A stretch of 64,000 nucleotides of DNA, from sequence record OR780565.1; one strand, 5' to 3'. Shown piece after piece: positions 1,912-53,570 of this stretch. Position 1 is the stretch's first letter. Every line of letters begins with the position of its first letter. Both the position numbers and the translations under genes were made by a program. Origin of the DNA: Escherichia phage DCP2. The notes beneath the pieces were generated by a model. It worked only from the letters and a program-made list of their open reading frames with translations, ran no database searches and had not been told where the DNA came from.

Positions 1912-3251
<1,340 letters not shown>

Positions 3252-3311
3252 TTGCTTATATATTCAAATGATATAATTATTTAACTTATTAATGAATTGA
3301 AAGGAAAAATA

Positions 3312-3830
3312 ATGGCATACTTTAATGAATGTTCACAACTGATTGAAGGCGCTGATAAAGCTCAAAACGAATACTGGGATATTCTCGGTGATGAAAAAGA
3401 CCCGCTGCAAGTTATGCTTGATATGCAGAAATCTCTGCAGGTTCGTTTAGCTAAAGATAAACCTGAATATAACCGTCATCCTGATGATTTGGCTACTGCG
3501 GGTGAAGTTGTTGATTGGCTGCGTAATCAGAAAGATTATATTGATGATGAATTCCGCGAACTATTGACTTCTCTTGGTGGTATGAGCAATGGTGAAAAAG
3601 ATGCATCTGCTGTATGGAAGCCTTGGAAAGCTCAACATGGTGAACGACGTGAAACTCTGATTACTGATTTGTCTCCACAAGACCAGTTGGAAATTAAATT
3701 CGAAATGATTGATATTCTTCATTTCGTTCTGAACATGTTCCAAGGTCTCGGTCTTACGGCTGAAGAAATCTTTAAACTTTATTATCTGAAAAATGCTGAA
3801 AACTTCGCTCGTCAAGACCGAGGTTATTAA
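3312..3830 (+). CDS. 56: dCTPase/dUTPase gp56 (172 aa)
   Basis: Start moved to ATG 3312 (SD AAGGA); MAYFNEC...YYLKNAENFARQDRGY matches recalled T4 gp56. Confidence 0.9.
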   Translation: MAYFNECSQLIEGADKAQNEYWDILGDEKDPLQVMLDMQKSLQVRLAKDKPEYNRHPDDLATAGEVVDWLRNQKDYIDDEFRELLTSLGGMSNGEKDASAVWKPWKAQHGERRETLITDLSPQDQLEIKFEMIDILHFVLNMFQGLGLTAEEIFKLYYLKNAENFARQDRGY

Positions 3831-4030
3831 TGGCTCGTTTAAATAAACGTCAACTTAAGAAAGCCCACAAGAAACGTATTGACCAGCTATTTAAAAATTA
3901 TGACAAGGAGCTCACATACGAGCTCCTATCTAATCAGCTCCACAAAGCTTACACAATTAAAACTGGACATATACAATTAGGTAAGGTGCATGAAGAAGCC
4001 TTAAAATTAATTATAGAGCATTCAAAATGA
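3830..4030 (+). CDS. small basic hypothetical protein (66 aa)
   Basis: ORF track; ATGA overlap with gene 56 stop; contains 8-bp perfect palindrome at 3906-3927. Confidence 0.45.
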   Translation: MARLNKRQLKKAHKKRIDQLFKNYDKELTYELLSNQLHKAYTIKTGHIQLGKVHEEALKLIIEHSK

Positions 4031-4236
4031 AATTTGATTTTTATGCATGGCAAAAAGCCGGGAGACCGGCTAGTTGAGCATTTGGTTCTGATGGATATAA
4101 TATTAGAGCTCATTGGAAGTTTAATGCTCCAGCCGATTATTCTCCGGTAATTATTAACGGTGATGTTGTTATATTAACTAAAATTGGGTATTTTAACGTT
4201 CCGCAAGAATTTATTATAAATAGTCATGTAATTTAA
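4027..4236 (+). pseudogene. 69-codon reading frame interrupted by an in-frame TGA at 4075-4077
   Basis: ATG 4027 (overlaps preceding stop), TGA at codon 17, then 52 further open codons to TAA 4234-4236; lies where T4 carries segF. Confidence 0.3.
4215..4222 (+). promoter_or_regulatory. late promoter TATAAATA
   Basis: Exact TATAAATA ~30 nt upstream of soc start. Confidence 0.65.
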
Positions 4237-14262: not shown

Positions 14263-14634
14263 ATGTTTAAAATTGGTAAGAAATATCGTGTTCGCGAAGG
14301 TGAAGAAAAGAAATATCTACTTTCTTCTATTTATAGGAATGGTTCTATTAATGCCGTAATATCTACAAGCGAATTTATCGTTGAAGATATGAAAGGCCAT
14401 AATGTTACAATGATTAGTACAGCATCTGGAAATGATGGAAAAATTCTTCACAGTTTTCAGAGTAATGTTCTAATTTATGATGAAGAATTTGACTTCTTCG
14501 AAGAAGTTCCTGAAGATTTTGATTTTGAATGCACTATCACTATGAAATCTGGTGACCCTCTTTCTTTTACAGTTAAAGATGAAAGAAGTCGCTTGAGAAT
14601 TATTAGTCTCCTTCAAGCCATTAAATTTGAGTGA
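14263..14634 (+). CDS. hypothetical protein (123 aa)
   Basis: ORF track, ATG start. Confidence 0.5.
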   Translation: MFKIGKKYRVREGEEKKYLLSSIYRNGSINAVISTSEFIVEDMKGHNVTMISTASGNDGKILHSFQSNVLIYDEEFDFFEEVPEDFDFECTITMKSGDPLSFTVKDERSRLRIISLLQAIKFE

Positions 14635-14899
14635 AATTATGAAATATGTTAATCGTTCTATCGCGGCATTAGTATTAGCAGTATCTTTAGTAGGATGTAC
14701 TGATGCTGATAATGCAACCAAAGTTTTGTCTTCAAGCGGTTTTACTAATATTGAAATCACTGGATATAATTGGTTCGGTTGCTCTGAAAATGATTTCCAA
14801 CATACTGGATTTCGTGCTATTGGACCTACCGGGCAGAAAGTAGAAGGAACAGTATGTTCTGGTCTATTCTTCAAGGATTCGACTATCCGTTTTAAATAA
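14627..14899 (+). CDS. putative lipoprotein (90 aa, lipobox LVGC)
   Basis: Signal peptide IAALVLAVSLVGCTDA. Confidence 0.5.
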   Translation: MSEIMKYVNRSIAALVLAVSLVGCTDADNATKVLSSSGFTNIEITGYNWFGCSENDFQHTGFRAIGPTGQKVEGTVCSGLFFKDSTIRFK

Positions 14900-14916
14900 A
14901 AGGCCTTCGGGCCTTT
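14899..14916 (+). terminator. terminator-like hairpin AAAGGCC-TTCG-GGCCTTT
   Basis: GC stem with TTCG loop after ORF stop; T-run interrupted. Confidence 0.4.
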
Positions 14917-14965
14917 AGCTTTATGATTACTGGAGTATAATATTCCCGAAACCAAACGAGGATAA

Positions 14966-16786
14966 GTGATGATTAAGAATGAAATTAAAATTCTGAGCGA
15001 TATTGAACATATCAAAAAGCGTAGCGGCATGTACATTGGTTCTTCTGCTAATGAAATGCATGAGCGCTTTCTGTTTGGTAAATGGGAAAGTGTTCAGTAT
15101 GTACCTGGTCTTGTTAAGCTTATTGATGAAATTATCGATAACTCAGTAGATGAAGGTATTCGTACTAAGTTTAAATTCGCAAATAAAATTAATGTTACCA
15201 TTAAAAATAATCAGGTAACAGTTGAAGATAACGGTCGTGGTATTCCACAGGCGATGGTTAAAACACCTACCGGTGAAGAAATTCCTGGTCCTGTTGCTGC
15301 CTGGACTATTCCAAAAGCAGGTGGTAACTTTGGTGATGATAAAGAACGCGTCACCGGCGGTATGAACGGTGTTGGTTCTAGTTTAACTAACATTTTTTCT
15401 GTGATGTTTGTCGGTGAAACTGGCGACGGTCAAAATAATATTGTGGTTCGCTGCTCGAATGGCATGGAAAATAAATCATGGGAAGATATTCCTGGAAAAT
15501 GGAAAGGAACTCGCGTTACTTTCATTCCTGATTTTATGTCATTTGAAACTAATGAGCTATCTCAAGTTTATCTTGACATTACACTAGATCGTCTCCAGAC
15601 ACTTGCGGTAGTTTATCCTGATATTCAATTTACCTTTAATGGTAAAAAGGTTCAGGGTAATTTTAAGAAATATGCACGCCAATATGATGAACATGCTATT
15701 GTTCAAGAACAAGAAAATTGTTCTATTGCGGTTGGTCGTTCACCGGATGGTTTTCGTCAATTAACATACGTCAATAACATTCATACTAAGAATGGTGGCC
15801 ATCACATTGACTGTGTTATGGATGATATTTGTGAAGACCTTATTCCACAAATCAAACGTAAATTCAAAATTGATGTAACTAAAGCACGTGTTAAAGAATG
15901 TTTGACTATCGTTATGTTTGTCCGTGATATGAAAAACATGCGATTTGATTCTCAAACTAAAGAGCGTTTGACTTCTCCATTTGGTGAAATTCGTAGTCAT
16001 ATTCAGCTTGATGCTAAAAAGATTTCACGTGCTATTTTGAATAATGAAGCAATTTTAATGCCAATCATTGAAGCTGCTTTGGCTCGTAAATTGGCGGCAG
16101 AAAAAGCAGCAGAAACTAAAGCAGCTAAAAAGGCTTCTAAAGCTAAGGTTCATAAACATATTAAAGCGAATCTTTGTGGTAAAGATGCTGACACTACTCT
16201 TTTCTTGACTGAGGGTGATTCTGCTATTGGATATCTTATTGATGTTCGTGATAAAGAACTTCATGGTGGTTATCCATTGCGTGGTAAAGTTCTTAACAGT
16301 TGGGGTATGTCATATGCTGATATGCTTAAAAACAAAGAACTATTTGATATTTGCGCAATCACTGGATTAGTTCTTGGTGAAAAAGCTGAAAACTTGAATT
16401 ATCATAATATTGCAATTATGACCGATGCTGACCATGATGGTCTAGGAAGCATTTATCCTTCTCTGCTCGGATTTTTTAGTAATTGGCCAGAATTGTTTGA
16501 ACAAGGAAGAATTCGCTTTGTCAAAACTCCTGTAATCATCGCTCAGGTAGGTAAAAAACAAGAATGGTTTTATACAGTCGCTGAATATGAGAGTGCTAAA
16601 GATGCTCTACCTAAACATAGCATCCGTTATATTAAGGGACTTGGCTCTTTGGAAAAATCTGAATATCGCGAGATGATTCAAAACCCAGTATATGATGTTG
16701 TTAAACTTCCTGAGAACTGGAAAGAGCTTTTTGAAATGCTCATGGGAGATAATGCTGACCTTCGTAAAGAATGGATGAGCCAGTAG
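14966..16786 (+). CDS. 39: DNA topoisomerase II large subunit gp39, contiguous (606 aa)
   Basis: GyrB-like ATPase N-terminus (MIKNEIKILSDIEHIKKRSGMYIGS), TOPRIM C-terminal part; single ORF, no gene 60 split. Confidence 0.93.
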   Translation: MMIKNEIKILSDIEHIKKRSGMYIGSSANEMHERFLFGKWESVQYVPGLVKLIDEIIDNSVDEGIRTKFKFANKINVTIKNNQVTVEDNGRGIPQAMVKTPTGEEIPGPVAAWTIPKAGGNFGDDKERVTGGMNGVGSSLTNIFSVMFVGETGDGQNNIVVRCSNGMENKSWEDIPGKWKGTRVTFIPDFMSFETNELSQVYLDITLDRLQTLAVVYPDIQFTFNGKKVQGNFKKYARQYDEHAIVQEQENCSIAVGRSPDGFRQLTYVNNIHTKNGGHHIDCVMDDICEDLIPQIKRKFKIDVTKARVKECLTIVMFVRDMKNMRFDSQTKERLTSPFGEIRSHIQLDAKKISRAILNNEAILMPIIEAALARKLAAEKAAETKAAKKASKAKVHKHIKANLCGKDADTTLFLTEGDSAIGYLIDVRDKELHGGYPLRGKVLNSWGMSYADMLKNKELFDICAITGLVLGEKAENLNYHNIAIMTDADHDGLGSIYPSLLGFFSNWPELFEQGRIRFVKTPVIIAQVGKKQEWFYTVAEYESAKDALPKHSIRYIKGLGSLEKSEYREMIQNPVYDVVKLPENWKELFEMLMGDNADLRKEWMSQ

Positions 16787-16815
16787 TTTACTTTACCACA
16801 AGGATGTGGTATAAT
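16786..16815 (+). promoter_or_regulatory. T4-type early promoter
   Basis: GTTTAC 16786-16791 overlapping gene 39 stop, TATAAT 16810-16815. Confidence 0.45.
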
Positions 16816-16840
16816 TAATTGGGCAAATGAGGATATTGAA

Positions 16841-17044
16841 ATGAAATCATATAAAGTAAATTTAGAACTTTTTGATAAAGCAGTTCACCGAGAATATAGA
16901 ATCATTCAACGCTTTTTCGATATGGGAGAAGCCGAAGAGTTTAAAAACCGCTTTAAGGATATTAGAGATAAAATTCAATCCGACACCGCAACCAAAGATG
17001 AATTACTAGAAGTTGCTGAAGTTATTAAACGCAATATGAATTAA
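16841..17044 (+). CDS. hypothetical protein (67 aa, rIIA.1 position)
   Basis: ORF track, ATG with SD GAGGA. Confidence 0.5.
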
Positions 17045-17054
17045 TGAGGAAATT

Positions 17055-19232
17055 ATGATTATCACCACTGAAAAAGAAACAATTCTTGGTAATGGTTCTA
17101 AATCAAAAGCATTTAGCATCACAGCATCTCCTAAAGTATTTAAAATTCTATCATCTGATTTGTATACAAACAAGATTCGCGCAGTAGTTCGTGAATTGAT
17201 TACCAACATGATTGATGCCCATGCTCTCAATGGAAATCCTGAAAAATTTATCATTCAAGTTCCAGGACGATTAGATCCGCGATTTGTTTGCCGAGATTTT
17301 GGTCCGGGTATGAGCGATTTTGATATTCAGGGTGATGATAATTCTCCTGGGTTGTATAATTCATACTTCAGTTCATCTAAGGCTGAATCTAACGATTTCA
17401 TTGGTGGATTTGGTTTAGGTTCTAAATCTCCGTTTAGTTATACTGATACGTTTAGTATTACTTCGTACCATAAAGGTGAAATTCGCGGTTATGTAGCTTA
17501 TATGGATGGTGACGGTCCGCAGATTAAACCTACATTCGTAAAAGAAATGGGTCCAGACGATAAAACTGGTATTGAAATCGTAGTTCCAGTTGAAGAAAAA
17601 GACTTTAGAAACTTTGCTTATGAAGTTTCTTATATCATGCGACCATTCAAAGATTTGGCTATCATTAATGGTCTTGACCGTGAAATTGATTATTTTCCGG
17701 ATTTTGATGACTATTACGGCGTAAATCCAGAAAGATACTGGCCAGATCGTGGTGGATTGTATGCTATCTATGGTGGTATTGTTTATCCTATTGATGGTGT
17801 TATTAGAGACCGTAACTGGTTAAGCATTCGCAATGAAGTGAATTATATTAAGTTTCCAATGGGTTCACTTGATATTGCTCCATCACGTGAGGCTCTTTCA
17901 CTAGATGATCGTACTCGTAAAAATATTATTGAGCGTGTTAAAGAGCTCAGTGAGAAGGCATTTAATGAAGATGTAAAACGATTTAAAGAATCTACATCTC
18001 CTCGTCATACATACCGTGAATTGATGAAGATGGGGTATTCTGCTCGAGATTATATGATTAGTAATTCGGTCAAATTCACGACTAAAAATCTGTCATATAA
18101 AAAGATGCAGAGCATGTTTGAACCTGACAGTAAGTTATGCAATGCAGGGGTTGTGTATGAAGTAAATCTTGACCCTCGACTGAAACGCATTAAGCAAAGT
18201 CATGAAACTTCAGCCGTTGCATCAAGTTATCGTCTGTTTGGTATTAACACAACAAAAATTAATATCGTTATTGATAATATTAAAAATCGTGTTAATATTG
18301 TCCGTGGATTAGCACGTGCGTTAGATGATAATGAATTTAATAACACCTTAAATATTCATCACAATGAACGCCTTTTGTTTATTAATCCGGAAGTAGAATC
18401 ACAGATTGATTTGCTTCCTGATATTATGGCAATGTTTGAAAGTGATGAAGTTAACATTCATTATTTGTCAGAAATTGAAGCTTTAGTTAAAAGTTATATT
18501 CCAAAGGCAGTAAAAAGTACAGCTCCTCGTCCTAAAGCTGCCACTGCATTTAAGTTTGAAATTAAAGACGGGCGCTGGGAAAAAGAGGAGTTGTTTACAC
18601 TTACGTCAGAAGCAGATGAAATTACTGGTTATGTAGCATACATGCATCGTTCTGATATTTTCTCTATGGATGGTACTACATCGCTTTGTCATCCATCTAC
18701 GAATATTTTGATTCGTATGGCTAATCTTATTGGCATTAATGAATTTTATGTTATTCGTCCGCTTTTGCAGAAAAAGGTAAAAGAACTTGGTCAGTGCCAA
18801 TGTATTTTTGAAACTTTGCGTGATTTATATGTAGATGCTTTTGATGATGTAGATTATGATAAGTATGTAGGTTATTCAAGTTCAGCTAAACGATATATTG
18901 ATAAAATTATCAAGTATCCTGAGTTAGATTTTATGATGAAGTACTTCAGTGTAGATGAAGTTTCCGAAGAATATACACGACTCGCTAATATGGTTAGTTC
19001 ATTACAGGGTGTATATTTTAATGGTGGAAAAGATACCATCGGTCATGACATCTGGACGGTAACTAATCTTTTTGATGTATTATCAAATAATGCTTCAAAA
19101 AACAGTGATAAAATGGTTGCTGAGTTTACCAAGAAATTCCGTATTGTTTCCGACTTCATCGGTTATCGCAACTCTTTAAGTGATGATGAAGTTTCCCAAA
19201 TCGCTAAAACTATGAAGGCCCTTGCGGCCTAA
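17055..19232 (+). CDS. rIIA: rIIA protein (725 aa)
   Basis: 725 aa as in T4 rIIA; N-terminus [20 protein letters not shown]; synteny with rIIB. Confidence 0.95.
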
Positions 19233-21049: not shown

Positions 21050-21065
21050 AAAATTTCACAAAATG

Positions 21066-21095
21066 GTTTACATACCACAAGGACCGTGGTACTAT
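21066..21095 (+). promoter_or_regulatory. T4-type early promoter
   Basis: GTTTAC 21066-21071, TACTAT 21090-21095. Confidence 0.5.
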
Positions 21096-21122
21096 ACAAC
21101 TATCAACTACAGAGGAACAAAA

Positions 21123-21386
21123 ATGAAATTTAAATTCTTTTATGTTAAACATAAAATCACAGGTGAATTTGTTCATGTACAATATTCTGAAATTGACGAT
21201 GCAACATCATTTATTTCATTGGGATTGTCTAAATATGAATCAGACCAACCATATCTTACTGATAAATTGCAACAAGAGCGTTTGTTGAATGGTGATTTAA
21301 ACAATTCTTGGGAAGTTCTTATTTACGATGATTTAAAGAAAGCTATTAAAGAAAATAATCTTGAAATCATTGAGATTGAACTATGA
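21123..21386 (+). CDS. hypothetical protein (87 aa)
   Basis: ATG 21123 with SD AGAGGAA, downstream of the promoter. Confidence 0.5.
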   Translation: MKFKFFYVKHKITGEFVHVQYSEIDDATSFISLGLSKYESDQPYLTDKLQQERLLNGDLNNSWEVLIYDDLKKAIKENNLEIIEIEL

Positions 21387-23180: not shown

Positions 23181-24509
23181 ATGCAACTGAATAATCGCGA
23201 TTTAAAAAGTATCATTGATAATGAAGCATTGGCTTATGCTATGTACACGGTTGAAAATCGTGCTATTCCAAATATGATTGATGGATTTAAGCCAGTTCAA
23301 CGATTTGTTATTGCTCGAGCTCTTGATTTGGCACGGGGAAATAAAGATAAGTTTCACAAACTTGCTTCTATTGCAGGTGGTGTAGCAGACCTTGGATATC
23401 ATCATGGTGAAAACTCTGCACAAGACGCAGGTGCTTTGATGGCTAACACATGGAATAATAACTTTCCTTTGTTAGACGGCCAAGGAAACTTTGGTTCTCG
23501 TACTGTTCAAAAGGCAGCGGCAAGTCGTTATATTTTTGCTCGTGTAAGTAAAAATTTCTATAACGTATATAAAGATACTGAATATGCTCCAGTACATCAA
23601 GATAAAGAACACATTCCGCCTGCTTTCTATTTGCCTATTATTCCTACTGTTCTTCTTAATGGCGTTTCCGGTATTGCAACTGGTTATGCAACTTACATTC
23701 TTCCTCATAGTGTTTCTTCTGTCAAGAAAGCTGTACTGCAAGCTCTTCAAGGAAAGAAAGTAACTAAACCGAAGGTAGAATTCCCAGAATTTCGTGGTGA
23801 AGTCGTTGAAATTGATGGGCAATATGAAATTCGTGGAACATATAAGTTTACTTCACGAACTCAAATGCATATCACTGAGATTCCATATAAGTATGATCGT
23901 GAAACTTATGTGAGTAAAATCTTAGACCCGCTTGAAGATAAAGGCTTCATTACATGGGATGATGCTTGCGGTGAGCATGGTTTTGGCTTTAAAGTTAAAT
24001 TCCGAAAAGAATACTCTTTGAGCGATAATGAAGAAGAACGCCATGCAAAAATTATGAAAGACTTCGGGTTGATTGAGCGTCGTTCCCAGAATATTACCGT
24101 CATTAATGAGAAAGGAAAGCTGCAAGTTTACGATAATGTAGTTGATTTAATCAAAGACTTCGTTGAAGTTCGTAAAACTTATGTCCAAAAACGAATTGAT
24201 AACAAAATCAAAGAAACTGAATCAGCATTTCGTTTAGCTTTTGCCAAGGCACATTTCATTAAGAAAGTAATTTCAGGTGAAATTGTTGTACAAGGTAAAA
24301 CTCGCAAAGAACTGACCGAAGAACTTTCTAAAATTGATATGTATTCTTCTTATGTTGATAAACTAGTTGGAATGAACATTTTTCATATGACTTCCGACGA
24401 AGCAAAGAAACTTGCTGAAGAAGCTAAAGCCAAAAAAGAAGAAAACGAATATTGGAAAACTACTGATGTAGTTACAGAATACACCAAAGATTTAGAGGAA
24501 ATCAAATGA
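23181..24509 (+). CDS. 52: DNA topoisomerase II medium subunit gp52 (442 aa)
   Basis: GyrA-like N-terminus (AYAMYTVENRAIPNMIDGFKPVQRF); 442 aa as in T4 gp52. Confidence 0.95.
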   Translation: MQLNNRDLKSIIDNEALAYAMYTVENRAIPNMIDGFKPVQRFVIARALDLARGNKDKFHKLASIAGGVADLGYHHGENSAQDAGALMANTWNNNFPLLDGQGNFGSRTVQKAAASRYIFARVSKNFYNVYKDTEYAPVHQDKEHIPPAFYLPIIPTVLLNGVSGIATGYATYILPHSVSSVKKAVLQALQGKKVTKPKVEFPEFRGEVVEIDGQYEIRGTYKFTSRTQMHITEIPYKYDRETYVSKILDPLEDKGFITWDDACGEHGFGFKVKFRKEYSLSDNEEERHAKIMKDFGLIERRSQNITVINEKGKLQVYDNVVDLIKDFVEVRKTYVQKRIDNKIKETESAFRLAFAKAHFIKKVISGEIVVQGKTRKELTEELSKIDMYSSYVDKLVGMNIFHMTSDEAKKLAEEAKAKKEENEYWKTTDVVTEYTKDLEEIK

Positions 24510-24790: not shown

Positions 24791-25018
24791 ATGAAATTTA
24801 AAATCGAAAACGAAATCGTTAAAGCTAAAAATGCTCTGACTGCTAACAAACTGGTTGTAGATGGTATTGAATATGATATCTGTGGAGTTCGTGAAGAAAA
24901 ACCTGGTGTTCTGACTTTCTTCACAATGATTTTTAAATTTAAAGGTGACACAGAATTCAAACAGTTTGATTTTGCCCATGAAGACGAAATCGAAGTTCGT
25001 AATCTGAACATTAAGTAA
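24791..25018 (+). CDS. hypothetical protein (75 aa)
   Basis: ORF track; SD GGAG. Confidence 0.5.
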   Translation: MKFKIENEIVKAKNALTANKLVVDGIEYDICGVREEKPGVLTFFTMIFKFKGDTEFKQFDFAHEDEIEVRNLNIK

Positions 25019-28666: not shown

Positions 28667-28696
28667 AGACCCTCCTTTTAAGGGTATTTATTCACA

Positions 28697-29479
28697 TTAT
28701 ACTCTTGGACCATATATTGCTCCAACATTTTGCCATGTCGGTGTAGACCCTATGACGGCATAACCAGCAGCTCCGCCATCGTATTCATATCCTTGACCAC
28801 GAATATTACATCTACCTCCTGCGGAGCCAACTTCACCACCAGACCCGCCGTTGTAGATACCGTTCACAGACCCTGCGCCTGGCGAAGAAATAGTACCAGC
28901 AGTTGCTCCTGATTGCATATCAATAGATCCGCCCGGTGCGCCAAACGGACGACCGCCGCCACCGCCAAAGGTCAATCTCATTCGTGAAAAAGGAGAATAA
29001 TACCCGCCGCCGCCACCGCCGCCGCCGCCAGCAATAGCTCCGCCATTATTAATTCTTAGTCTCCCACCAATATCATTTTGAATACAATGACCCCCAGCTG
29101 AGCCAGGACTATTGCTACCGCCATTCCCGCCACGGCCATACATCGTTACACCATGTATGTTCAACTGAACATATTCATTCGGTGTATCTCCGTACATGAA
29201 GAATAAAGGAACATCTTTAGAATATGATACTAAATCTCCAGTGATATTAAACACTATAGGTGCACTACCTGCCTCAAAACATCTATCTCGGAACCATTGA
29301 CCATTGAAGTTATGGTCTGCTCCAAGCGTGTGAATAATTTCTCTTGAGCGACCTGCAAATTGACTCATCCAGCAAGGAACACCCAATCTTAATTGACCAG
29401 CCGCTTGACTCATCCATCGTTGTCCTGTTTCATTTACAGATGAACTTCCAATCCAACCGGGAACACCAACTACTGCCAT
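28697..29479 (-). CDS. 38: tail-fibre adhesin gp38, glycine-rich T2/T6 type
   Basis: ATG at 29479 (rc) with SD GGAG; poly-Gly motifs (GGGGGGGGG, GGGGG) separated by variable segments; ORF-track start 29491 is TTG. Confidence 0.8.
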
Positions 29480-29511
29480 AATTTTCTCCAAAGGGGCAAA
29501 GCCCCTTGTTG

Positions 29512-32460
29512 TTAGAATTTAAAATAATTACTAATTTTGCGAGCAATTTTAGTGAAGAAAGGCGTTTTCAATTCTTTAATTTCTTCACTCATTTCCTGAA
29601 TAGCCTTAATTAAAAGAGCATTCACAGCAGAGTTAGAAATTGTCAGAACATCAGATCCATCAACTTCAACTTTAGATACAGCTTCCGGTAATTCCTTTTC
29701 AAGGTCCTGAGCAATAATACCAACTTCACGTTTAATAACACTACGGTCTTTAATAGACTTAACTTTATCGTAAATATAAACTTTCAGTCGGCAAACTTTT
29801 TCGACCGCTCCATATTCTAATTCTTCTTTATTAATCTTGAGACGGGAGTCAGAACGAATATACACATCGCTAAAGCTACCATTTCCTGGTGTATAAAAGA
29901 ATCCATCATGATGGAATTCAAACACAGCTTGTGGGTGTCCAGCATCAGGAGAAGCCTCCGTGGATCCGACACGAATGATTGCTTGCCCCCACTGTGATGG
30001 AATACGACGCATACCAAAGTCAACAGCGGTGCTATATCCTTGATTGGTTATAACGCTTCTTGCTTTAAGAATAGGATAATAACAATCCTGTGAAACATAA
30101 CCATGATCAACGAATAATGGAGCTTCTACTCGCCATTGGTTGCCCCAATCACCCGGTTGTCTAGCAATCCATCCAGAACCGTTAATGTGTACACGATCGC
30201 GGTTAACGTTAACCATTGCGATATTTTGTGGATTTAGCGAAATCTCACCATTGTTTGTGATATGTACTGCCGCCTGAGTAGCATAGCTATAAAATGCTAG
30301 CGAATTATCAGCACCACCCTTACCAATATACCAGTTACCAGTCCCGTCTATATCACCGCGAATATGCAAAGAATTACTAGCAGTTGTTGATAATACAATA
30401 GCATCATTAGGTGTATTGATTGTTAACCGACCTGTCATCGTATCACCGCTTTTACCTACGCGAGTATTCAAAGCAGCGTCTAAGTTGGTTGCATTGTTGT
30501 ATTTCTTCCAGATTGAACCAGCAATGTTACCATCAGTGTTCAAGAATGCTGCGCCAGCATAAACTCGGCTTTGTGACATGAATCGGCCAGACGGCAAGAA
30601 ACGCCATGTAGCTAATTCATTAGCTGTAGTTCCAGTAGCGGATAAATCACCTTGAGCAATGATACGATATTCTGAACTAGCAATATCCATACCAGAAGCC
30701 ATAGTAATATTTGTTACAGTGTTTTTCTGTTTTACAATAGGAGCAAACTGGTTTTTATTTGAATCGTCAATGGCCTGATATAATGGCGCAATAGTAGTAT
30801 TCTGATTTGCGTAAGTATTTGAACCAGAACCGCTAGCAGGGCCTTGAATATATGCTCCAGGAGCAATTGAAATTTTCTTATTAGCACCAAGATTAATATC
30901 AGCGGTGATATTTAGCAATCCCCTAAAGTTTTGTTGAGCAGTCCAAGTATGTGATCCGTCTTCAAGAACAACACGGCGACAAGTGTTAGTCCTGTTTCCT
31001 GGATTTCCAGCTATACGCACAACAAAATAACGGTAGTTTGTCTGGGATACAGTACCACGCCAAACCTGAACAGTACGTCCTGTGCCAGTATGTTCGCTAG
31101 GACCAACAGAAAACATAATTAAGTTTCCGTCAATCGTACCCCAATTCATATTTGCTGGCATGTTCTTTATTTTGTTCAAAGGAACGCTAAACATACTACC
31201 AGGGACAAAATCAAAGGTTTGCCAATCTAACTCCGCTAATTGAGCTTTAATACCACCCATACCCAAAGTAATTGGCAGAGAATAAGATGTATATACTTCG
31301 TTCCATGCACCCCACGCACCACCAGTATATGCACGCTCAAAAATACGATCGCGAGTAGTTGCACCCGTTCCTGCGGTAGTGAAACGTTGGAAAATAGCAC
31401 CGCCAGAAGCACGCTGTTTAACTTCCAGCAAACCAACAATAACAGTCGGCAAACCTTCACCTGTAGGACAGTTAATAACGGCATCAGTGCCTAAAATATT
31501 ATATAACCCGGGAGTTTTAAAATCATTCAGATCTCCATCATAGAAAGTCGCTGGTGTGCCATGACCAACCTGCTTCCATTCCTCCCACTTAGGTGCACTA
31601 GCATCCCATGCAGCAGCGAGACAACGAGTATAAACCATACCCATGCGGGTAGTATAACGCTGAGTTCTCGCGTATAAACCACCTTCAAATATTTCTAAAA
31701 ATCCTTGTGCGGCTGATCCTTCTTCTGGATAATGGCGATCAAATGATGCGATTGCGCTTGAACTGTTTCGCCATAAGCCACAATGTTCTAACTCTCCCAA
31801 GCTATCAAGGTCAATCGTTTGTGAAAGTGGACGAGTTGACGCTTGAACATTACGCCACACACCCCATGGACCATCGACGCCATTCCATTTAGCAGATAAG
31901 GAACGAATATAGACGTTACCAGATCTTACAGTATAACGCTGAGTGCCAGCAAATTGGCCGGCCACAAACACTTCTAGTACACCTACGGCATTTTCTTCTG
32001 GGAATTTATTTGCTGGTTGCGCATTTGTTGAAGTAGATTTCGACCAAACACCAAGATATTCTTCAATGGGCCCATACGTATCTAAATTAGCATCAGTAGG
32101 TAATTCGCCATTATTTTTTATAAATGTTGTGCTATTGACATTTATGTCAGATGGAGTTAAGGTAATGTCCTTTGACCCATCAAAAGATATACCATTAATT
32201 TTCCTAGGTGTTTGCAATTTAGTAGCTGTGCTAGAATTTCCAATTAAAGTTCCAGTTATATTTTCTGTAACCTCTAAAGACCCATTTATAGTTCCTCCAT
32301 ATTTTAAACCTAATTCTATAACACTACCTGAGTCATCTTTTGTGAAAATTGTTTTATCTTTTAAGTTTATAGCCAATTCACCTTCGGCTAATACTGAAGC
32401 AGCAGGACGTTGACCTGCAGTTTTGCTTCTTTTAAATTGTATTTGTTTTAAAGTAGCCAT
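29512..32460 (-). CDS. 37: long tail fibre distal subunit gp37 (982 aa)
   Basis: N-terminus [35 protein letters not shown] as in T-even gp37; synteny 36-37-38. Confidence 0.9.
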
Positions 32461-40442: not shown

Positions 40443-41075
40443 ATGAATATAGTATATTGGTTTACATTTGAAGACCGTGTCAAAAATAAGACTCCGCCGT
40501 ACTACTATATCGGCAGTAAATTAAATTGCTCATTTGAAAATGGAATAATATATGACTCTTCCGGAAAGGAATACTGGAGTTCATGTAAACAAAAGAGATT
40601 TTTAAATGCGGTAATGCTTCAAAAACCGAGCGTTAAAATAATTCAAATTGATGATGATTTGGATGTTATTGAAGCAGAGCGAAAATACCAACTTGAAGTA
40701 AATGCCAGAGATAATCCAGACTATTTTAATCTGGTATATGCTGGCGGCGGATTTGGTGTGAGTGGTGAAACTCATCCAGCCAAAGACCCGGAAGTTAGAG
40801 AGCATATGAGATTGGCTAATTATATGAACCGTGACGATTTTAGACCTTGGAAAACATCACGAGCTAATATAGAGTCTTGGAAATTATCTCATATTGCTTA
40901 CGAGAATTATGTGTTATTATTATCCTCTAATCTGTACGGTAAAACTCCTGGATGGCGAAGAGTTAAAGGTAATATAAATATAACTGATGCAACTGCTAAA
41001 TCAATGGTAAAGTATTTCAACTCAGGTTGGATACCTCTCGAAGACCCAGAGTATTGCGAATTATGCCAGCTATGA
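40443..41075 (+). mobile_element. segG: free-standing GIY-YIG homing endonuclease, SegG-like (210 aa)
   Basis: N-terminal GIY-YIG variant (NIVYWFTF ... YYYIGSK); inserted between 59 and 32 as T4 segG. Confidence 0.7.
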
Positions 41076-42452: not shown

Positions 42453-42839
42453 ATGGAAATCGGCAAAAAATATGAGTTAAATCCACACCGTATTAAATCT
42501 TTCATTGATATTAGTTCATCAAATGCTAATATGGTCAGCATCATTCAAGAAAATGGCGGTTGGTTTGAAGTTAAATCAATATCAAGTTTAGATGGCTTTG
42601 ATTATGTAACCGAAATCATTTGTGCTAATGGCGAAATCTATAATGATGATGGCATAGGTGATGATTATTTTGAACTTAGTGAAGAAGAGTTTTATTGTTT
42701 CCGCGAGTATAAAGAACCGACTTCTGAAGAAGATGAAGTCGAAGACAAGGTTTCTGGCGTAACAAAAATTCACTGCATTGTAGACGAAAACAATGTAGAT
42801 GAAATCATTGAACTTTTGCGAAAAACTTTTAAGGCCTAA
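42453..42839 (+). CDS. acidic hypothetical protein (128 aa)
   Basis: ATG 42453 with SD GAGGA. Confidence 0.5.
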   Translation: MEIGKKYELNPHRIKSFIDISSSNANMVSIIQENGGWFEVKSISSLDGFDYVTEIICANGEIYNDDGIGDDYFELSEEEFYCFREYKEPTSEEDEVEDKVSGVTKIHCIVDENNVDEIIELLRKTFKA

Positions 42840-42840
42840 T

Positions 42841-43101
42841 ATGACTAAAGATGATTTCCTGGATGCGGTAGAAAAAGCTAGTGAGAAATTTGAAGTGATG
42901 GGTGTACGGGTCCATAAAGACAGAAATTACGGACTCGATATTCAAACGTATTCGTTATGGCTTGTGGGTGAACACAGTCTTGTAACCAGTTTAGTTATGG
43001 GTGTCGATACCTATCCTCTATTGGTTAAGTTCAGAAGTATGGAAAAGGCTACTAAAGAAATGATTAAGCTTGGTAAGTGGCTCGATAAAATTCAAAAATA
43101 A
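42841..43101 (+). CDS. hypothetical protein (86 aa)
   Basis: ATG 42841 with SD AAGG; ORF-track start is upstream non-ATG. Confidence 0.5.
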   Translation: MTKDDFLDAVEKASEKFEVMGVRVHKDRNYGLDIQTYSLWLVGEHSLVTSLVMGVDTYPLLVKFRSMEKATKEMIKLGKWLDKIQK

Positions 43102-44000: not shown

Positions 44001-44360
44001 GTGGCGGAAAATATGAGCTTTAATTATTACCCTATTCTATTAGAAAAAGACGCGAAACAGCCAAAATGGCAGGGTCCTCAGTTTATTAAAGGCGTCTATC
44101 AATTAGTAGTTCCTAAAGACAAGATTTATAGTAGTTGTTTCACTGAATCCGCTTGCAGTATTTTCGGTAATAGTTCTCCGTATTGGAATTTTGATATAAA
44201 GCTTGACAGAAATATCGATATTTGGTTGAAAGCTATGGATATTGGCAATATCACGTTTGATGAGAATAATTATCATATTATTGGTCGCTTTTCCAAGCGT
44301 GGTAAAGAATTATATTTCACGCCTGAAATTGAAAGAAAATTTGACGCTAAACCGTATTGA
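44001..44360 (+). CDS. hypothetical protein on an insertion between frd and td (119 aa from GTG 44001, or 115 aa from ATG 44013)
   Basis: Open frame with its own stop; no motif recognised. Confidence 0.5.
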   Translation: MAENMSFNYYPILLEKDAKQPKWQGPQFIKGVYQLVVPKDKIYSSCFTESACSIFGNSSPYWNFDIKLDRNIDIWLKAMDIGNITFDENNYHIIGRFSKRGKELYFTPEIERKFDAKPY

Positions 44361-44405: not shown

Positions 44406-45266
44406 ATGAAACAATACCAAGATTTAATTAAAGACATTTTTGAAAATGGCTATGAAACTGATGACCGAACAGGCACAGGAACAATTGCTTTGTTCGGTAC
44501 TAAATTACGCTGGGATTTAAGTAAAGGTTTTCCTGCAGTAACGACTAAGAAGCTCGCCTGGAAAGCTTGCATTGCTGAGCTAATATGGTTTTTATCGGGA
44601 AGCACAAATGTCAATGATTTGCGATTAATTCAACATGATTCATTAATTCAAGGCAAAACAGTCTGGGATGAAAATTACGAAAATCAAGCAAAAGATTTAG
44701 GATACCATAGCGGTGAACTTGGTCCAATTTATGGAAAACAATGGCGTGATTTTGGCGGTGTAGACCAAATTGTAGAAGTTGTTGATCGTATTAAAAAACT
44801 GCCGAATGATAGGCGTCAAATTGTTTCTGCGTGGAATCCAGCTGAACTTAAATATATGTCATTACCGCCTTGTCATATGTTTTATCAGTTTAATGTGCGT
44901 AATGGATATTTGGATTTGCAGTGGTATCAACGTTCGGTAGATGTTTTTCTTGGTCTTCCATTTAATATTGCATCATATGCTGCGTTAGTTCATATTGTAG
45001 CTAAGATGTGTAATCTTATTCCAGGAGATTTGATATTTTCTGGTGGTAATACTCATATCTATATGAATCACGTAGAACAATGTAAAGAAATTTTGCGTCG
45101 TGAACCTAAAGAGCTCTGTGAACTGGTAATAGGCGGATTGCCTTATAAATTCCGCTATCTTTCTACTAAAGAACAATTGGAATACATTCTTAAACTCAGG
45201 CCTAAAGATTTCGTTCTCAAAGATTATCAGTCCCATGGTGTCTTGAAAGGAAAAATGGCGGTGTAA
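44406..45266 (+). CDS. td: thymidylate synthase, uninterrupted (286 aa)
   Basis: MKQYQDLIKDIFENGYETDDRTGTGT..., catalytic PPCH; contiguous 286-codon ORF. Confidence 0.95.
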   Translation: MKQYQDLIKDIFENGYETDDRTGTGTIALFGTKLRWDLSKGFPAVTTKKLAWKACIAELIWFLSGSTNVNDLRLIQHDSLIQGKTVWDENYENQAKDLGYHSGELGPIYGKQWRDFGGVDQIVEVVDRIKKLPNDRRQIVSAWNPAELKYMSLPPCHMFYQFNVRNGYLDLQWYQRSVDVFLGLPFNIASYAALVHIVAKMCNLIPGDLIFSGGNTHIYMNHVEQCKEILRREPKELCELVIGGLPYKFRYLSTKEQLEYILKLRPKDFVLKDYQSHGVLKGKMAV

Positions 45267-45836: not shown

Positions 45837-48087
45837 TGTTATCAAAAGTAGTGGTGTTTCTCAGAGCTTTGACCCGCAAAAAATTATTAAAGTTTTATCT
45901 TGGGCAGCTGAGGGAACATCAGTAGATCCTTATGAATTATATGAAAATATTAAATCTTATCTCCGTGATGGAATGACAACTGATGATATTCAGACTATTG
46001 TCATTAAGGCTGCTGCGAATTCTATTTCGGTTGAAGAGCCTGATTATCAATATGTAGCTGCACGTTGTCTAATGTTCGCTCTTCGTAAGCATGTTTATGG
46101 GCAGTATGAACCGCGTTCATTTATTGACCATATTTCTTACTGTGTAAATGAAGGTAAATATGACCCTGAATTATTGTCAAAATATTCAGCAGAAGAAATT
46201 ACATTTTTAGAATCAAAAATTAAGCACGAGCGGGATATGGAATTTACTTATTCCGGGGCGATGCAATTAAAAGAAAAATATTTAGTTAAAGATAAAACCA
46301 CTGGTCAAATTTATGAAACTCCTCAGTTTGCATTTATGACTATTGGAATGGCATTGCATCAAGATGAACCTGTTGATAGATTAAAACATGTTATTCGTTT
46401 TTATGAAGCAGTATCTACTCGACAGATTTCATTACCAACTCCTATTATGGCTGGTTGCCGTACTCCAACTCGGCAGTTTAGTTCATGCGTTGTTATTGAG
46501 GCAGGTGATTCATTAAAGTCTATTAATAAGGCTTCTGCTTCAATTGTTGAATATATCTCCAAACGTGCTGGAATTGGTATTAACGTTGGTATGATTCGTG
46601 CCGAAGGTTCTAAGATTGGCATGGGTGAAGTGCGTCATACTGGTGTTATTCCTTTTTGGAAACATTTTCAGACTGCTGTTAAATCATGCTCACAGGGCGG
46701 AATTCGTGGCGGCGCTGCTACTGCTTATTATCCTATTTGGCATTTGGAAGTTGAAAATCTTCTCGTTTTGAAAAATAACAAAGGCGTAGAAGAAAACCGC
46801 ATTCGTCATATGGATTATGGTGTTCAACTGAATGATTTGATGATGGAACGATTCGGAAAGAACGATTACATTACTTTGTTCAGTCCACATGAAATGGGTG
46901 GCGAGCTTTATTATTCTTATTTTAAAGACCAAAACCGTTTCCGTGAATTATACGAAGCAGCAGAAAAAGACCCTAATATTCGTAAAAAGCGTATTAAAGC
47001 CCGTGAACTATTTGAATTGCTCATGACTGAACGTTCAGGAACCGCAAGGATTTATGTGCAGTTCATTGATAATACGAATAACTATACTCCGTTTATTCGT
47101 GAAAAGGCGCCTATTCGTCAGAGTAACTTGTGTTGTGAAATTGCTATTCCAACAAATGATGTGAATAGTCCTGATGCTGAAATTGGATTGTGTACTCTCT
47201 CTGCATTCGTACTAGATAATTTTGACTGGCAAGACCAAGATAAAATTAATGAATTGGCAGAAGTTCAAGTTCGTGCTCTTGATAATCTTTTGGATTACCA
47301 AGGATATCCAGTTCCTGAAGCAGAAAAAGCTAAAAAGCGTCGTAACCTCGGTGTAGGTGTTACTAACTATGCAGCTTGGCTGGCAAGTAACTTTGCTTCT
47401 TATGAAGATGCTAACGATTTAACACATGAACTATTTGAGAGATTACAGTATGGACTCATTAAAGCATCCATTAAACTCGCCAAAGAAAAAGGACCTTGCG
47501 AATATTATTCAGACACTCGTTGGTCTCGAGGCGAATTACCTATTGACTGGTACAATAAAAAGATTGACCAAATCGCAGCTCCAAAATACGTTTGTGACTG
47601 GTCGTCGCTGCGGGAAGACCTTAAGCTCTTTGGCATCCGTAATAGCACATTATCAGCACTTATGCCATGTGAGTCATCTTCCCAAGTTTCTAACAGTACA
47701 AATGGTATCGAGCCTCCACGTGGACCAGTCTCTGTTAAAGAATCAAAAGAGGGTTCCTTCAATCAAGTCGTGCCCAATATTGAACATAACATAGACCTCT
47801 ATGATTATACATGGAAATTAGCTAAGAAAGGTAATAAACCTTATCTTACGCAGGTAGCTATTATGCTGAAATGGGTATGTCAATCAGCTTCAGCGAATAC
47901 ATATTATGACCCACAGATTTTTCCAAAAGGAAAGGTTCCAATGTCAATAATGATTGATGACCTTTTGTATTTTTGGTATTTTGGCGGAAAAAATTTCTAT
48001 TATCATAATACCCGTGATGGTTCTGGTACTGATGATTATGAAATAGAAACTCCAAAAGCTGAAGATTGTTCATCCTGTAAATTATGA
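45823..48087 (+). CDS. nrdA: ribonucleotide reductase large subunit NrdA (754 aa)
   Basis: 754 aa as in T4 NrdA; ATP-cone N-terminus, class Ia RNR motifs. Confidence 0.95.
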   Translation: MQLINVIKSSGVSQSFDPQKIIKVLSWAAEGTSVDPYELYENIKSYLRDGMTTDDIQTIVIKAAANSISVEEPDYQYVAARCLMFALRKHVYGQYEPRSFIDHISYCVNEGKYDPELLSKYSAEEITFLESKIKHERDMEFTYSGAMQLKEKYLVKDKTTGQIYETPQFAFMTIGMALHQDEPVDRLKHVIRFYEAVSTRQISLPTPIMAGCRTPTRQFSSCVVIEAGDSLKSINKASASIVEYISKRAGIGINVGMIRAEGSKIGMGEVRHTGVIPFWKHFQTAVKSCSQGGIRGGAATAYYPIWHLEVENLLVLKNNKGVEENRIRHMDYGVQLNDLMMERFGKNDYITLFSPHEMGGELYYSYFKDQNRFRELYEAAEKDPNIRKKRIKARELFELLMTERSGTARIYVQFIDNTNNYTPFIREKAPIRQSNLCCEIAIPTNDVNSPDAEIGLCTLSAFVLDNFDWQDQDKINELAEVQVRALDNLLDYQGYPVPEAEKAKKRRNLGVGVTNYAAWLASNFASYEDANDLTHELFERLQYGLIKASIKLAKEKGPCEYYSDTRWSRGELPIDWYNKKIDQIAAPKYVCDWSSLREDLKLFGIRNSTLSALMPCESSSQVSNSTNGIEPPRGPVSVKESKEGSFNQVVPNIEHNIDLYDYTWKLAKKGNKPYLTQVAIMLKWVCQSASANTYYDPQIFPKGKVPMSIMIDDLLYFWYFGGKNFYYHNTRDGSGTDDYEIETPKAEDCSSCKL

Positions 48088-48138
48088 TATAATTTGACTC
48101 ATGGACGAGTCACTATCTATTAACTAAGTGGAAAATTT

Positions 48139-49317
48139 ATGAGCACAGTTTTTAATACAAATCCAGTTGATGTTTTAAAAGAACCTATGTTTTTTGGTTC
48201 AGGTCTTGGTATTGCGCGTTATGATATTCAACGTCATAAAGTTTTTGAAGATTTAACCGAAAAGCAGTTGTCATTTTTCTGGCGTCCTGAAGAAGTAAAC
48301 TTAATGATGGATGCTGCGCAATTTAATAAGCTTCCTCAGTATCAGCAAAATATTTTTACTAATAACCTGAAGTATCAATCACTTTTGGATAGCATTCAGG
48401 GTCGTGCGCCGTCTGCTGTACTTATGTCATTAATTTCAGACCCAAGCCTTGATACATGGGTTGCTACGTGGACTTTTAGTGAAACTATTCACAGCCGTTC
48501 ATATACACATATCATGCGAAATCTTTATACTGATCCATCGAAAGTATTTGATGAAATTGTATTAGATGAAGCTATTATGAAACGTGCTGAATCCATTGGA
48601 CGTTATTATGATGATGTTCTTAAGAAAACCCGTGAATGGGAAAATGCTAAAGAATTTGTAGAACTAGCTAAAGAATCTCCTGATGCTGATTTTCGTTTAA
48701 ATCGAGCTATTAAACAAGAAGCCGAAGCTAAACGAGCACTAATGAAATCTCTTTATCTTTGCCTTCATGTAATCAATGCATTGGAAGCTATTCGTTTTTA
48801 TGTATCTTTCGCATGTACCTTTAACTTCCATAAGAACATGGAAATCATGGAAGGTAATGCCAAGATTATGAAGTTCATTGCGCGTGATGAGCAGCTTCAC
48901 CTTAAAGGCACTCAATATATTATTCGTCAACTTCAACTTGGCACTGATGGTGATGAATGGGTTAAAATTGCTCAAGAGTGTGAACAAGAAGCAGTTGATA
49001 TTTTCATGGAAGTTAACCGCCAAGAAAAAGACTGGGCAGTTCATTTATTTAAAGATGGTGATGTTCCTGGATTAAATACAAATAGCATGTGGAGCTTTAT
49101 TGATTACTTAACTGTATCTCGTATGAAACAGTGCGGTCTTCCATGCCCAATTACTGATGCTCCGGTTAAACATCCGTATCCTTGGATTCGTGAATACCTT
49201 AATTCTGATAATGTTCAATCCGCGCCGCAAGAAGTAGAACTGTCATCTTACCTTGTAGCACAGATTGATAATGATGTTGATGATAAAGTTATGATGAGTT
49301 TTAAAAAATATTTTTAA
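48139..49317 (+). CDS. nrdB: ribonucleotide reductase small subunit NrdB, uninterrupted (392 aa)
   Basis: Di-iron ligands (E..H motifs), C-terminal Tyr; contiguous ORF. Confidence 0.95.
   Translation: MSTVFNTNPVDVLKEPMFFGSGLGIARYDIQRHKVFEDLTEKQLSFFWRPEEVNLMMDAAQFNKLPQYQQNIFTNNLKYQSLLDSIQGRAPSAVLMSLISDPSLDTWVATWTFSETIHSRSYTHIMRNLYTDPSKVFDEIVLDEAIMKRAESIGRYYDDVLKKTREWENAKEFVELAKESPDADFRLNRAIKQEAEAKRALMKSLYLCLHVINALEAIRFYVSFACTFNFHKNMEIMEGNAKIMKFIARDEQLHLKGTQYIIRQLQLGTDGDEWVKIAQECEQEAVDIFMEVNRQEKDWAVHLFKDGDVPGLNTNSMWSFIDYLTVSRMKQCGLPCPITDAPVKHPYPWIREYLNSDNVQSAPQEVELSSYLVAQIDNDVDDKVMMSFKKYF

Positions 49318-52363: not shown

Positions 52364-52367
<4 letters not shown>
52137..52367 (+). CDS. hypothetical protein (76 aa)
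   Basis: ORF track; ATGA coupling. Confidence 0.45.

Positions 52368-53570
<1,203 letters not shown>

Follow-up and report, generated by a model that had tools for sequence, protein, structure and literature searches.

Gene 39 of Escherichia phage DCP2, encoding the large subunit of topoisomerase II, is a single uninterrupted reading frame, with neither the gene 60 split, nor the translational bypass, nor the mobA gene that interrupt it in phage T4. The unsplit gene 39 is real, correctly read, already known, common and fully described. It is the textbook contrast to the split 39/60 arrangement of T4, known since the T2/T6 comparisons, and it is T4, not DCP2, that is exceptional, as the cassette is found in 43 of 511 records. 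The window analysed here is a stretch of 64,000 nucleotides from the DCP2 record OR780565.1. To judge from its alignments, it is DNA of a T4-like phage running opposite to the T4 reference record: its synteny with T4 runs from approximately 20.1 kb down to 1 and then from 168.9 kb down to approximately 123.5 kb, and its best 25-kb match is 96.4% identical.

In the list of open reading frames of the window, gene 39 appears as an open frame at 14966..16786 on the plus strand, giving 606 amino acids from a GTG. At the base composition of the window, the chance probability of an open frame of 606 codons is approximately 3e-21, and the remaining two plus-strand frames contain 25 and 106 stops across the gene. 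An ATG at 14969 is the codon after the in-frame GTG at 14966. The annotated T2 gene 39 CDS is 1818 nt, and MIKNEIK is the N-terminus of both the annotated T2 gp39 and the T6 gp39 chain (PDB 8ylu). We take ATG 14969 as the start because of its spacing from the GAGGA motif and the starts of the T2 and T6 homologues; GTG 14966 was considered and rejected, given a Shine-Dalgarno spacing of only 3 nt and the same homologue starts. On sequence grounds, then, the true gene is 14969-16786, with 605 codons followed by TAG. The sequence-only reading had described one uninterrupted ORF of 606 codons, which holds for the continuity of the frame and places the start 3 nt too early. Translation would be conventional, from ATG 14969 to the TAG at 16784-16786 without recoding, and the gene is annotated correctly in the window as one conventional CDS from ATG 14969 that uses no recoding. 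The gene and its translation signal are as follows.

Positions 14969 to 16786, plus strand: gene 39 in unsplit form, for the large subunit of topoisomerase II, 605 aa and a TAG stop (from the ORF, Pfam, PHROG 543 and alignment to PDB 8ylu).

Positions 14958 to 14962, plus strand: GAGGA ribosome-binding site; spacing 6 nt to ATG 14969, 3 nt to GTG 14966 (read from the sequence).

Immediately upstream, the following elements could be read from the sequence.

Positions 14899 to 14940, plus strand: a GC-rich hairpin, AAAAGGCCTTCGGGCCTTT, after gene 39.1, then TAGCTTTAT, then TATAAT at 14935-14940.

The hairpin could be a terminator and, by resemblance to the T4 promoter consensus, the elements after it a possible middle promoter of gene 39 with a MotA-like box. 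A consensus scan of 14600-17100 returned fewer promoter-like sites than shuffled sequences and no terminator, and left this hairpin/MotA-box-like feature uncalled. Further upstream of gene 39, a 371-nt segment between 39.2 and 39.1 that is present in the window and absent from T4 carries a 123-aa ORF (14263-14634, plus strand); it matches PHROG 622, of unknown function, and shows weak similarity to the goF family in its N-terminal part.

The product of gene 39 matched PHROG 543 ('DNA topoisomerase II large subunit') over its full length, and three Pfam domains each scored above the curated cut-off: HATPase_c (PF02518), the GHKL ATP-binding domain, with 38.3 bits (cut-off 26.4); DNA_gyraseB (PF00204), the transducer, with 51.1 bits (cut-off 27); and TOPRIM_C (PF16898), in the Toprim region, with 30.7 bits (cut-off 29). 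The characteristic motifs of these domains were located at the following positions.

Positions 15125 to 15382, plus strand: GHKL ATPase motifs, namely the N-box DEIIDNSVDE (aa 53-62), G1 EDNGRGIP (aa 86-93) and G2/ATP lid GGMNGVGSS (aa 130-138).

Positions 16208 to 16225, plus strand: Toprim catalytic glutamate motif TEGDSA, aa 414-419 (motif search).

Positions 16421 to 16441, plus strand: Toprim acidic motif TDADHDG, aa 485-491 (motif search and codon comparison with T4).

With the QTK loop of the transducer at aa 327-334 (DSQTKERL), gp39 combines GHKL ATPase, transducer and Toprim in one polypeptide, including both the Toprim glutamate motif and the DxDxD metal-binding motif. In T4 the Toprim domain is divided over two polypeptides, with a ribosomal hop needed from GGA over UAG and the gap. 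The domains follow the same order as in bacterial GyrB/ParE and in the N-terminal half of eukaryotic Topo II, and significant structure matches were found to human TOP2A/B, yeast Top2, ParE and GyrB, the last of which is longer than the window gp39, which has neither the GyrB insertion nor the GyrB tail. The phage enzyme relaxes DNA and does not supercoil it (PMC11461880).

One difference from T4 lies directly before the QTK loop. Codons 326-328 of gene 39 read L-I-R in the T4 record NC_000866, and F-D-S in the window (15944-15952), T2 and T6. At the DNA level this amounts to a compensating -1/+1 pair of frameshifts, CGATTGATTCGTCAA in T4 and CGATTTGATTCTCAA in the window, and the T4 version either is genuine to that phage or goes back to an early sequencing mistake in its reference record.

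The partner subunit is also encoded in the window, 6.4 kb downstream of gene 39.

Positions 23181 to 24509, plus strand: gene 52, topoisomerase II medium (DNA-cleavage, GyrA-like) subunit, partner of gp39 (tblastn).

Residues 1-442 of T4 gp52 were covered by this match at 99.8% identity (tblastn). Topoisomerase II consists of two subunits (gp39 and gp52) in T2 and T6 and of three in T4 alone; the T6 enzyme has been purified and is active as a gp39+gp52 enzyme, in a cryo-EM study of T4 and T6 topoisomerase II that includes the solved T6 gp39 (PMC11461880). The window gp39 and gp52 would accordingly be expected to assemble, like their T2 and T6 counterparts, into a two-subunit (gp39)2(gp52)2 enzyme, whose activity and stoichiometry are predicted from how closely it matches the T6 enzyme, which has been both solved and assayed. 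ATP-dependent DNA relaxation by the window gp39 is likewise probable, given its 99.7% identity to T6 gp39.

Alignment with T4 showed where the interruption would be. By blastn against NC_000866, window 14847-16386 corresponds to T4 5450-3911 (96.0% identity), and window 16451-17094 corresponds to T4 2793-2150 (98.0% identity), collinear with the upstream block. Between the two blocks there are 64 nt in the window (16387-16450) and 1117 nt in T4 (3910-2794). The site and the junction within it are as follows.

Positions 16387 to 16450, plus strand: empty site of the MobA/bypass mobile cassette, 64 nt, from the third base of codon 473 through codon 494 (T4 alignments, codon comparison, T2 comparison).

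Positions 16439 to 16444, plus strand: counterpart of the junction between take-off and landing in T4; glycine codon 491 is GGT and leucine codon 492 is CTA (codon comparison).

The 1117-nt block of T4 consists of the C-terminal extension of gp39, mobA/60.1 (mobA being annotated as a pseudogene), the N-terminal extension of gene 60 with homR, the 50-nt bypass and the 9 nt that follow. T4 39 + mobA/60.1 + 60 thus has flanks homologous to the window (96% upstream, 98% downstream) and encodes the same functional domains. At the protein level the alignment is gapless, residues 1-473 of the window protein corresponding to T4 gp39 1-473 and residues 474-605 to gp60 29-160, as expected from the earlier claim that the ORF covers both the ATPase part and the region that T4 encodes as gene 60. 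The 43-aa tail of T4 gp39 and the approximately 30-aa head of gp60 have no counterpart in the window protein, and the left boundary falls at codon 473, which is GCT in the window and GCG in T4. TDADHDG lies inside the segment targeted by MobA, and its end is the exact point of the T4 bypass; the DxDxDG motif of T4 Toprim is at the bypass point, and the motif has the same position in the window. Here the window reads GAT GGT CTA GGA AGC and T4 reads GAT GGA [TAG + 50-nt gap ... GGA] TTA GGT TCT, with T4 homology resuming 9 nt past the landing site.

Searches for remnants of the cassette were negative. At the bypass-equivalent position of the window, the GGA take-off codon, the adjoining stop and the 50-nt gap are all absent. 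Allowing up to 3 mismatches, the T4 bypass sequence was not matched in any part of the window; tblastn with the T4 mobA fragment and with gp60.1 likewise found nothing across the window, and T4 2794-3910 had no blastn match to window 14800-17100 at word size 7. Nor did we find the T4-type layout of two ORFs (approximately 516 aa and 160 aa) around an HNH endonuclease gene, there being one ORF and no intervening sequence, and the alignment to T4 gp39/gp60 revealed no stop, frameshift or gap within gene 39. The absence of a gene 60 split, bypass and mobA, as proposed from the sequence alone, was thereby borne out by blastn, codon comparison, motif search and tblastn, and the realignment to T4 39/60 and T2/T6 gene 39 that had been suggested as a check placed the empty site at 16387-16450 and turned up no frameshift or bypass-like gap.

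The boundaries reproduce a published map of the element. A 2011 PNAS paper by Bonocora and colleagues is reportedly the primary experimental work on the MobA mobile cassette. In the map of Manning & Atkins (bioRxiv 10.1101/2022.08.31.505936), the MobA element is 1097-1106 nt long and deletes 64 nt of the parental Topo2L gene; its 5' end lies at aa 466-473 and its 3' end just past D490/G491 in RB14 numbering, the N-terminal part of the split gene measures 472-473 aa, and the E. coli-phage clade has 9 extra nt of element-derived homR past the bypass. Our comparison recovers both the deletion of 64 nt and the 9 nt by which the element extends past the bypass. According to the same authors, the element-encoded homR has diverged from the parental sequence, the nick site of MobA in T2 lies within homR, T2 is an experimental recipient of MobA, and each cassette-bearing clade has 'parental' genomes, 96-99% identical, that are devoid of the cassette (bioRxiv 10.1101/2022.08.31.505936).

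The window allele is almost certainly an ordinary 'parental' T-even gene 39. Either the MobA/bypass cassette never entered it, or recombination with an uninvaded phage restored it, two histories that would leave the same sequence. Directly seen were the unbroken ORF, its collinear alignment with T2, T6 and T4, its domains, the lack of cassette sequences and the frequency of this state among phage records. The window gp39 is identical to T2 gp39 at 604/605 positions, with the same length and 96.0% nucleotide identity, the single difference being L at residue 70 in T2 and F70 in the window. With T6 gp39 (PDB 8ylu) it shares 603/605 residues over a gapless alignment of 1-605, T6 having T where the window has D and H where the window has Q. 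The T2 and window genes differ by 70 synonymous codons and 1 nonsynonymous codon, a ratio that indicates purifying selection on gene 39. Gene 39 of T2, T6 and the RB14/RB32/RB33 group encodes 605 aa and has an uninterrupted MobA target segment like that of the window, and the gene context 39.1 - 39 - rIIA.1 - rIIA is common to the window and the T2/T6/RB group. The exact 605-aa protein has already been deposited: it was found in 290 contigs, with phage RB33 among the names, and in a UniRef entry spanning 36 Tequatrovirus taxa.

Among sequenced relatives this state prevails. The gene 39 region matched 571 phage records, almost all of them Tequatrovirus, and a 181-nt probe across the site was contiguous in 468 of the 511 records that it matched, while 43 matched with one flank only. 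With the 1117-nt T4 insert as the query, exactly 43 phage records were found. The unsplit site is therefore the majority state (~92% of sequenced relatives) and T4 the exception, so that the earlier description of this phage as a useful empty-site reference is true and at the same time redundant: 468/511 records are unsplit, and the boundaries have already been published.

The 64-nt segment itself speaks to the origin of the allele. It differs from T2 by 2 synonymous changes only (GCA for GCT and ACC for ACT), and its first 54 nt (16388-16441) are identical to the element-encoded homR of T4 at 34/54 positions, which argues that the allele is parental and not a product or scar of cassette excision. 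Since the target segment is nearly identical to that of T2, the window allele is predicted to be susceptible to MobA: 16387-16450 holds the sequence nicked by MobA in T2, and the phage would be expected to acquire the cassette when it shares a host cell with a MobA-positive phage. We also considered that the two synonymous changes might lower nicking by MobA and, together with the occupation of segG only (see below), mark a lineage that is resistant to some homing elements and not merely unexposed to them. Even far larger homR polymorphisms did not stop MobA from nicking (bioRxiv 10.1101/2022.08.31.505936), and we regard such resistance as very unlikely.

Similarly improbable is a secondary origin of the unsplit gene, in which an ancestor had the MobA cassette and a precise deletion ('hit and run') re-fused 39 and 60. 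Loss of endonuclease and bypass after insertion does occur, in clades of Aeromonas and Campylobacter (Manning & Atkins, bioRxiv 10.1101/2022.08.31.505936), and the presence of segG, another T4-type mobile element, implies that the DCP2 lineage has exchanged DNA with element-bearing phages. Against this, post-insertion loss leaves behind the element-derived C- and N-terminal extensions and a homR of the element type, whereas the window has neither extension, its gp39 has exactly the parental length of 605 aa, and its 64 nt are of the parental type; we thus rejected cassette loss as the origin of this allele. That the ORF is only apparently intact, hidden recoding or an assembly or sequencing artefact masking a split, has next to no chance of being correct in view of the gapless alignment to the solved T6 homologue, a length and frame equal to those of T2, the stop-ridden alternative frames, the missing bypass motif and the occurrence of the same contiguous sequence in hundreds of independent genomes.

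We also compared the other mobile-element sites of T4 within the window. Besides mobA, which targets gene 39, T4 has segF (soc/56), segG (32/59), mobE (nrdB/nrdA), I-TevI (td) and I-TevIII (nrdB) (Edgell et al., PMC2988022). The corresponding sites are as follows.

Positions 44406 to 45266, plus strand: td (thymidylate synthase), a single 286-aa ORF, with the empty intron/I-TevI site at 44953-44955 (T4 alignment, full-length ORF).

Positions 48139 to 49317, plus strand: nrdB, a single 392-aa ORF, with the empty intron/I-TevIII site at 48812-48815 (T4 alignment, full-length ORF).

Positions 3794 to 4214, plus strand: empty segF site between gene 56 and soc, 421 nt, compared with 696 nt including segF in T4 (T4 alignment, tblastn).

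Positions 48084 to 48138, plus strand: empty mobE site, an nrdA-nrdB spacer of 55 nt, compared with 700 nt in T4 (T4 alignment, tblastn).

Positions 40443 to 41075, plus strand: segG, lying intact between genes 59 and 32 and coding for a free-standing homing endonuclease of the GIY-YIG type (tblastn, PHROG 7504).

The T4 blocks of approximately 1019 nt (td intron/I-TevI) and approximately 600 nt (nrdB intron/I-TevIII) are missing from the window at 44953/44955 and 48812/48815, respectively, and I-TevI had no tblastn match in the window. The call of intron-less td and nrdB, which agrees with what had been read from the sequence, rests on these alignment gaps and on the full-length single ORFs. 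An Rfam scan at the gathering threshold gave 0 matches in the window and also 0 on T4's own td/nrdB intron region, the positive control, and such a negative scan cannot exclude introns of this kind because the endonuclease-ORF-bearing group I introns of T4 go undetected as well. T4 alignment and tblastn also agreed with the earlier statement that segF is missing from the window, and they showed mobE and nrdB.1 to be absent too, a fifth empty site that the sequence-only reading had left unmentioned. It had correctly seen that segG is still carried: residues 1-210 of T4 SegG aligned at 99% identity (tblastn), and the gene matched PHROG 7504 ('homing endonuclease') over its full length.

In total, 6 of the 15 homing-endonuclease loci of T4 fall inside the window, and among these only segG is occupied. 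The claim that this phage lacks most of the selfish elements of T4 is accordingly sound for five of the six loci in the window, the other 9 loci (segA-E, mobB-D and I-TevII) lying outside it. For each of the five absent T4 mobile elements the exact coordinates of the empty site are now on hand. No non-T4 homing endonuclease was found among the ORFs of every segment that is present in the window and not in T4. These segments are all at most 541 nt, except for a divergent tail-fibre tip, and their ORFs are small, none of them resembling an endonuclease apart from a candidate restriction-endonuclease-fold ORF adjoining dam (see below).

Several smaller differences from T4 were observed along the window. 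The unoccupied segF site harbours a 66-aa ORF (3830-4030, plus strand) that matches PHROG 5782, annotated 'virion structural protein'. Between frd and td, which overlap directly in T4, a 402-nt window-only segment carries an ORF of 115-119 aa (44001-44360, plus strand) matching PHROG 1928, of unknown function. Gene 61.2 of T4 (615 nt) is cleanly absent at window 402/403. Four further small ORFs of 75-107 aa on the plus strand, at 21063-21386, 24791-25018, 42799-43101 and 52364-52666, are absent from T4 and match PHROGs 2390, 10955, 4423 and 2364, respectively, all of unknown function.

The ORF beside dam (1912-2472, plus strand) encodes 186 aa and sits in a window-only segment that separates gene 61 from dam. 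It has its own promoter-like sequence and a GAGGA site, and its stop overlaps the dam start as TAATG. Its Pfam matches, to DpnII and BanI, are all below threshold; D72, E85 and K87 are invariant in its small family. The ORF occurs in approximately 146 phage records, always as a 'hypothetical protein' beside Dam, and T4 keeps just the last ~88 nt of it. It could be a restriction-endonuclease-fold gene whose translation is coupled to that of the phage's Dam methyltransferase, and may merit a separate look.

Lastly, the 3' end of gene 37 together with gene 38, both on the minus strand (28692-32305), has no nucleotide match to T4, spanning 3614 nt, compared with 3500 nt in T4. Such divergence of the tail fibre suggests that DCP2 has a different receptor-binding tip or type of adhesin.
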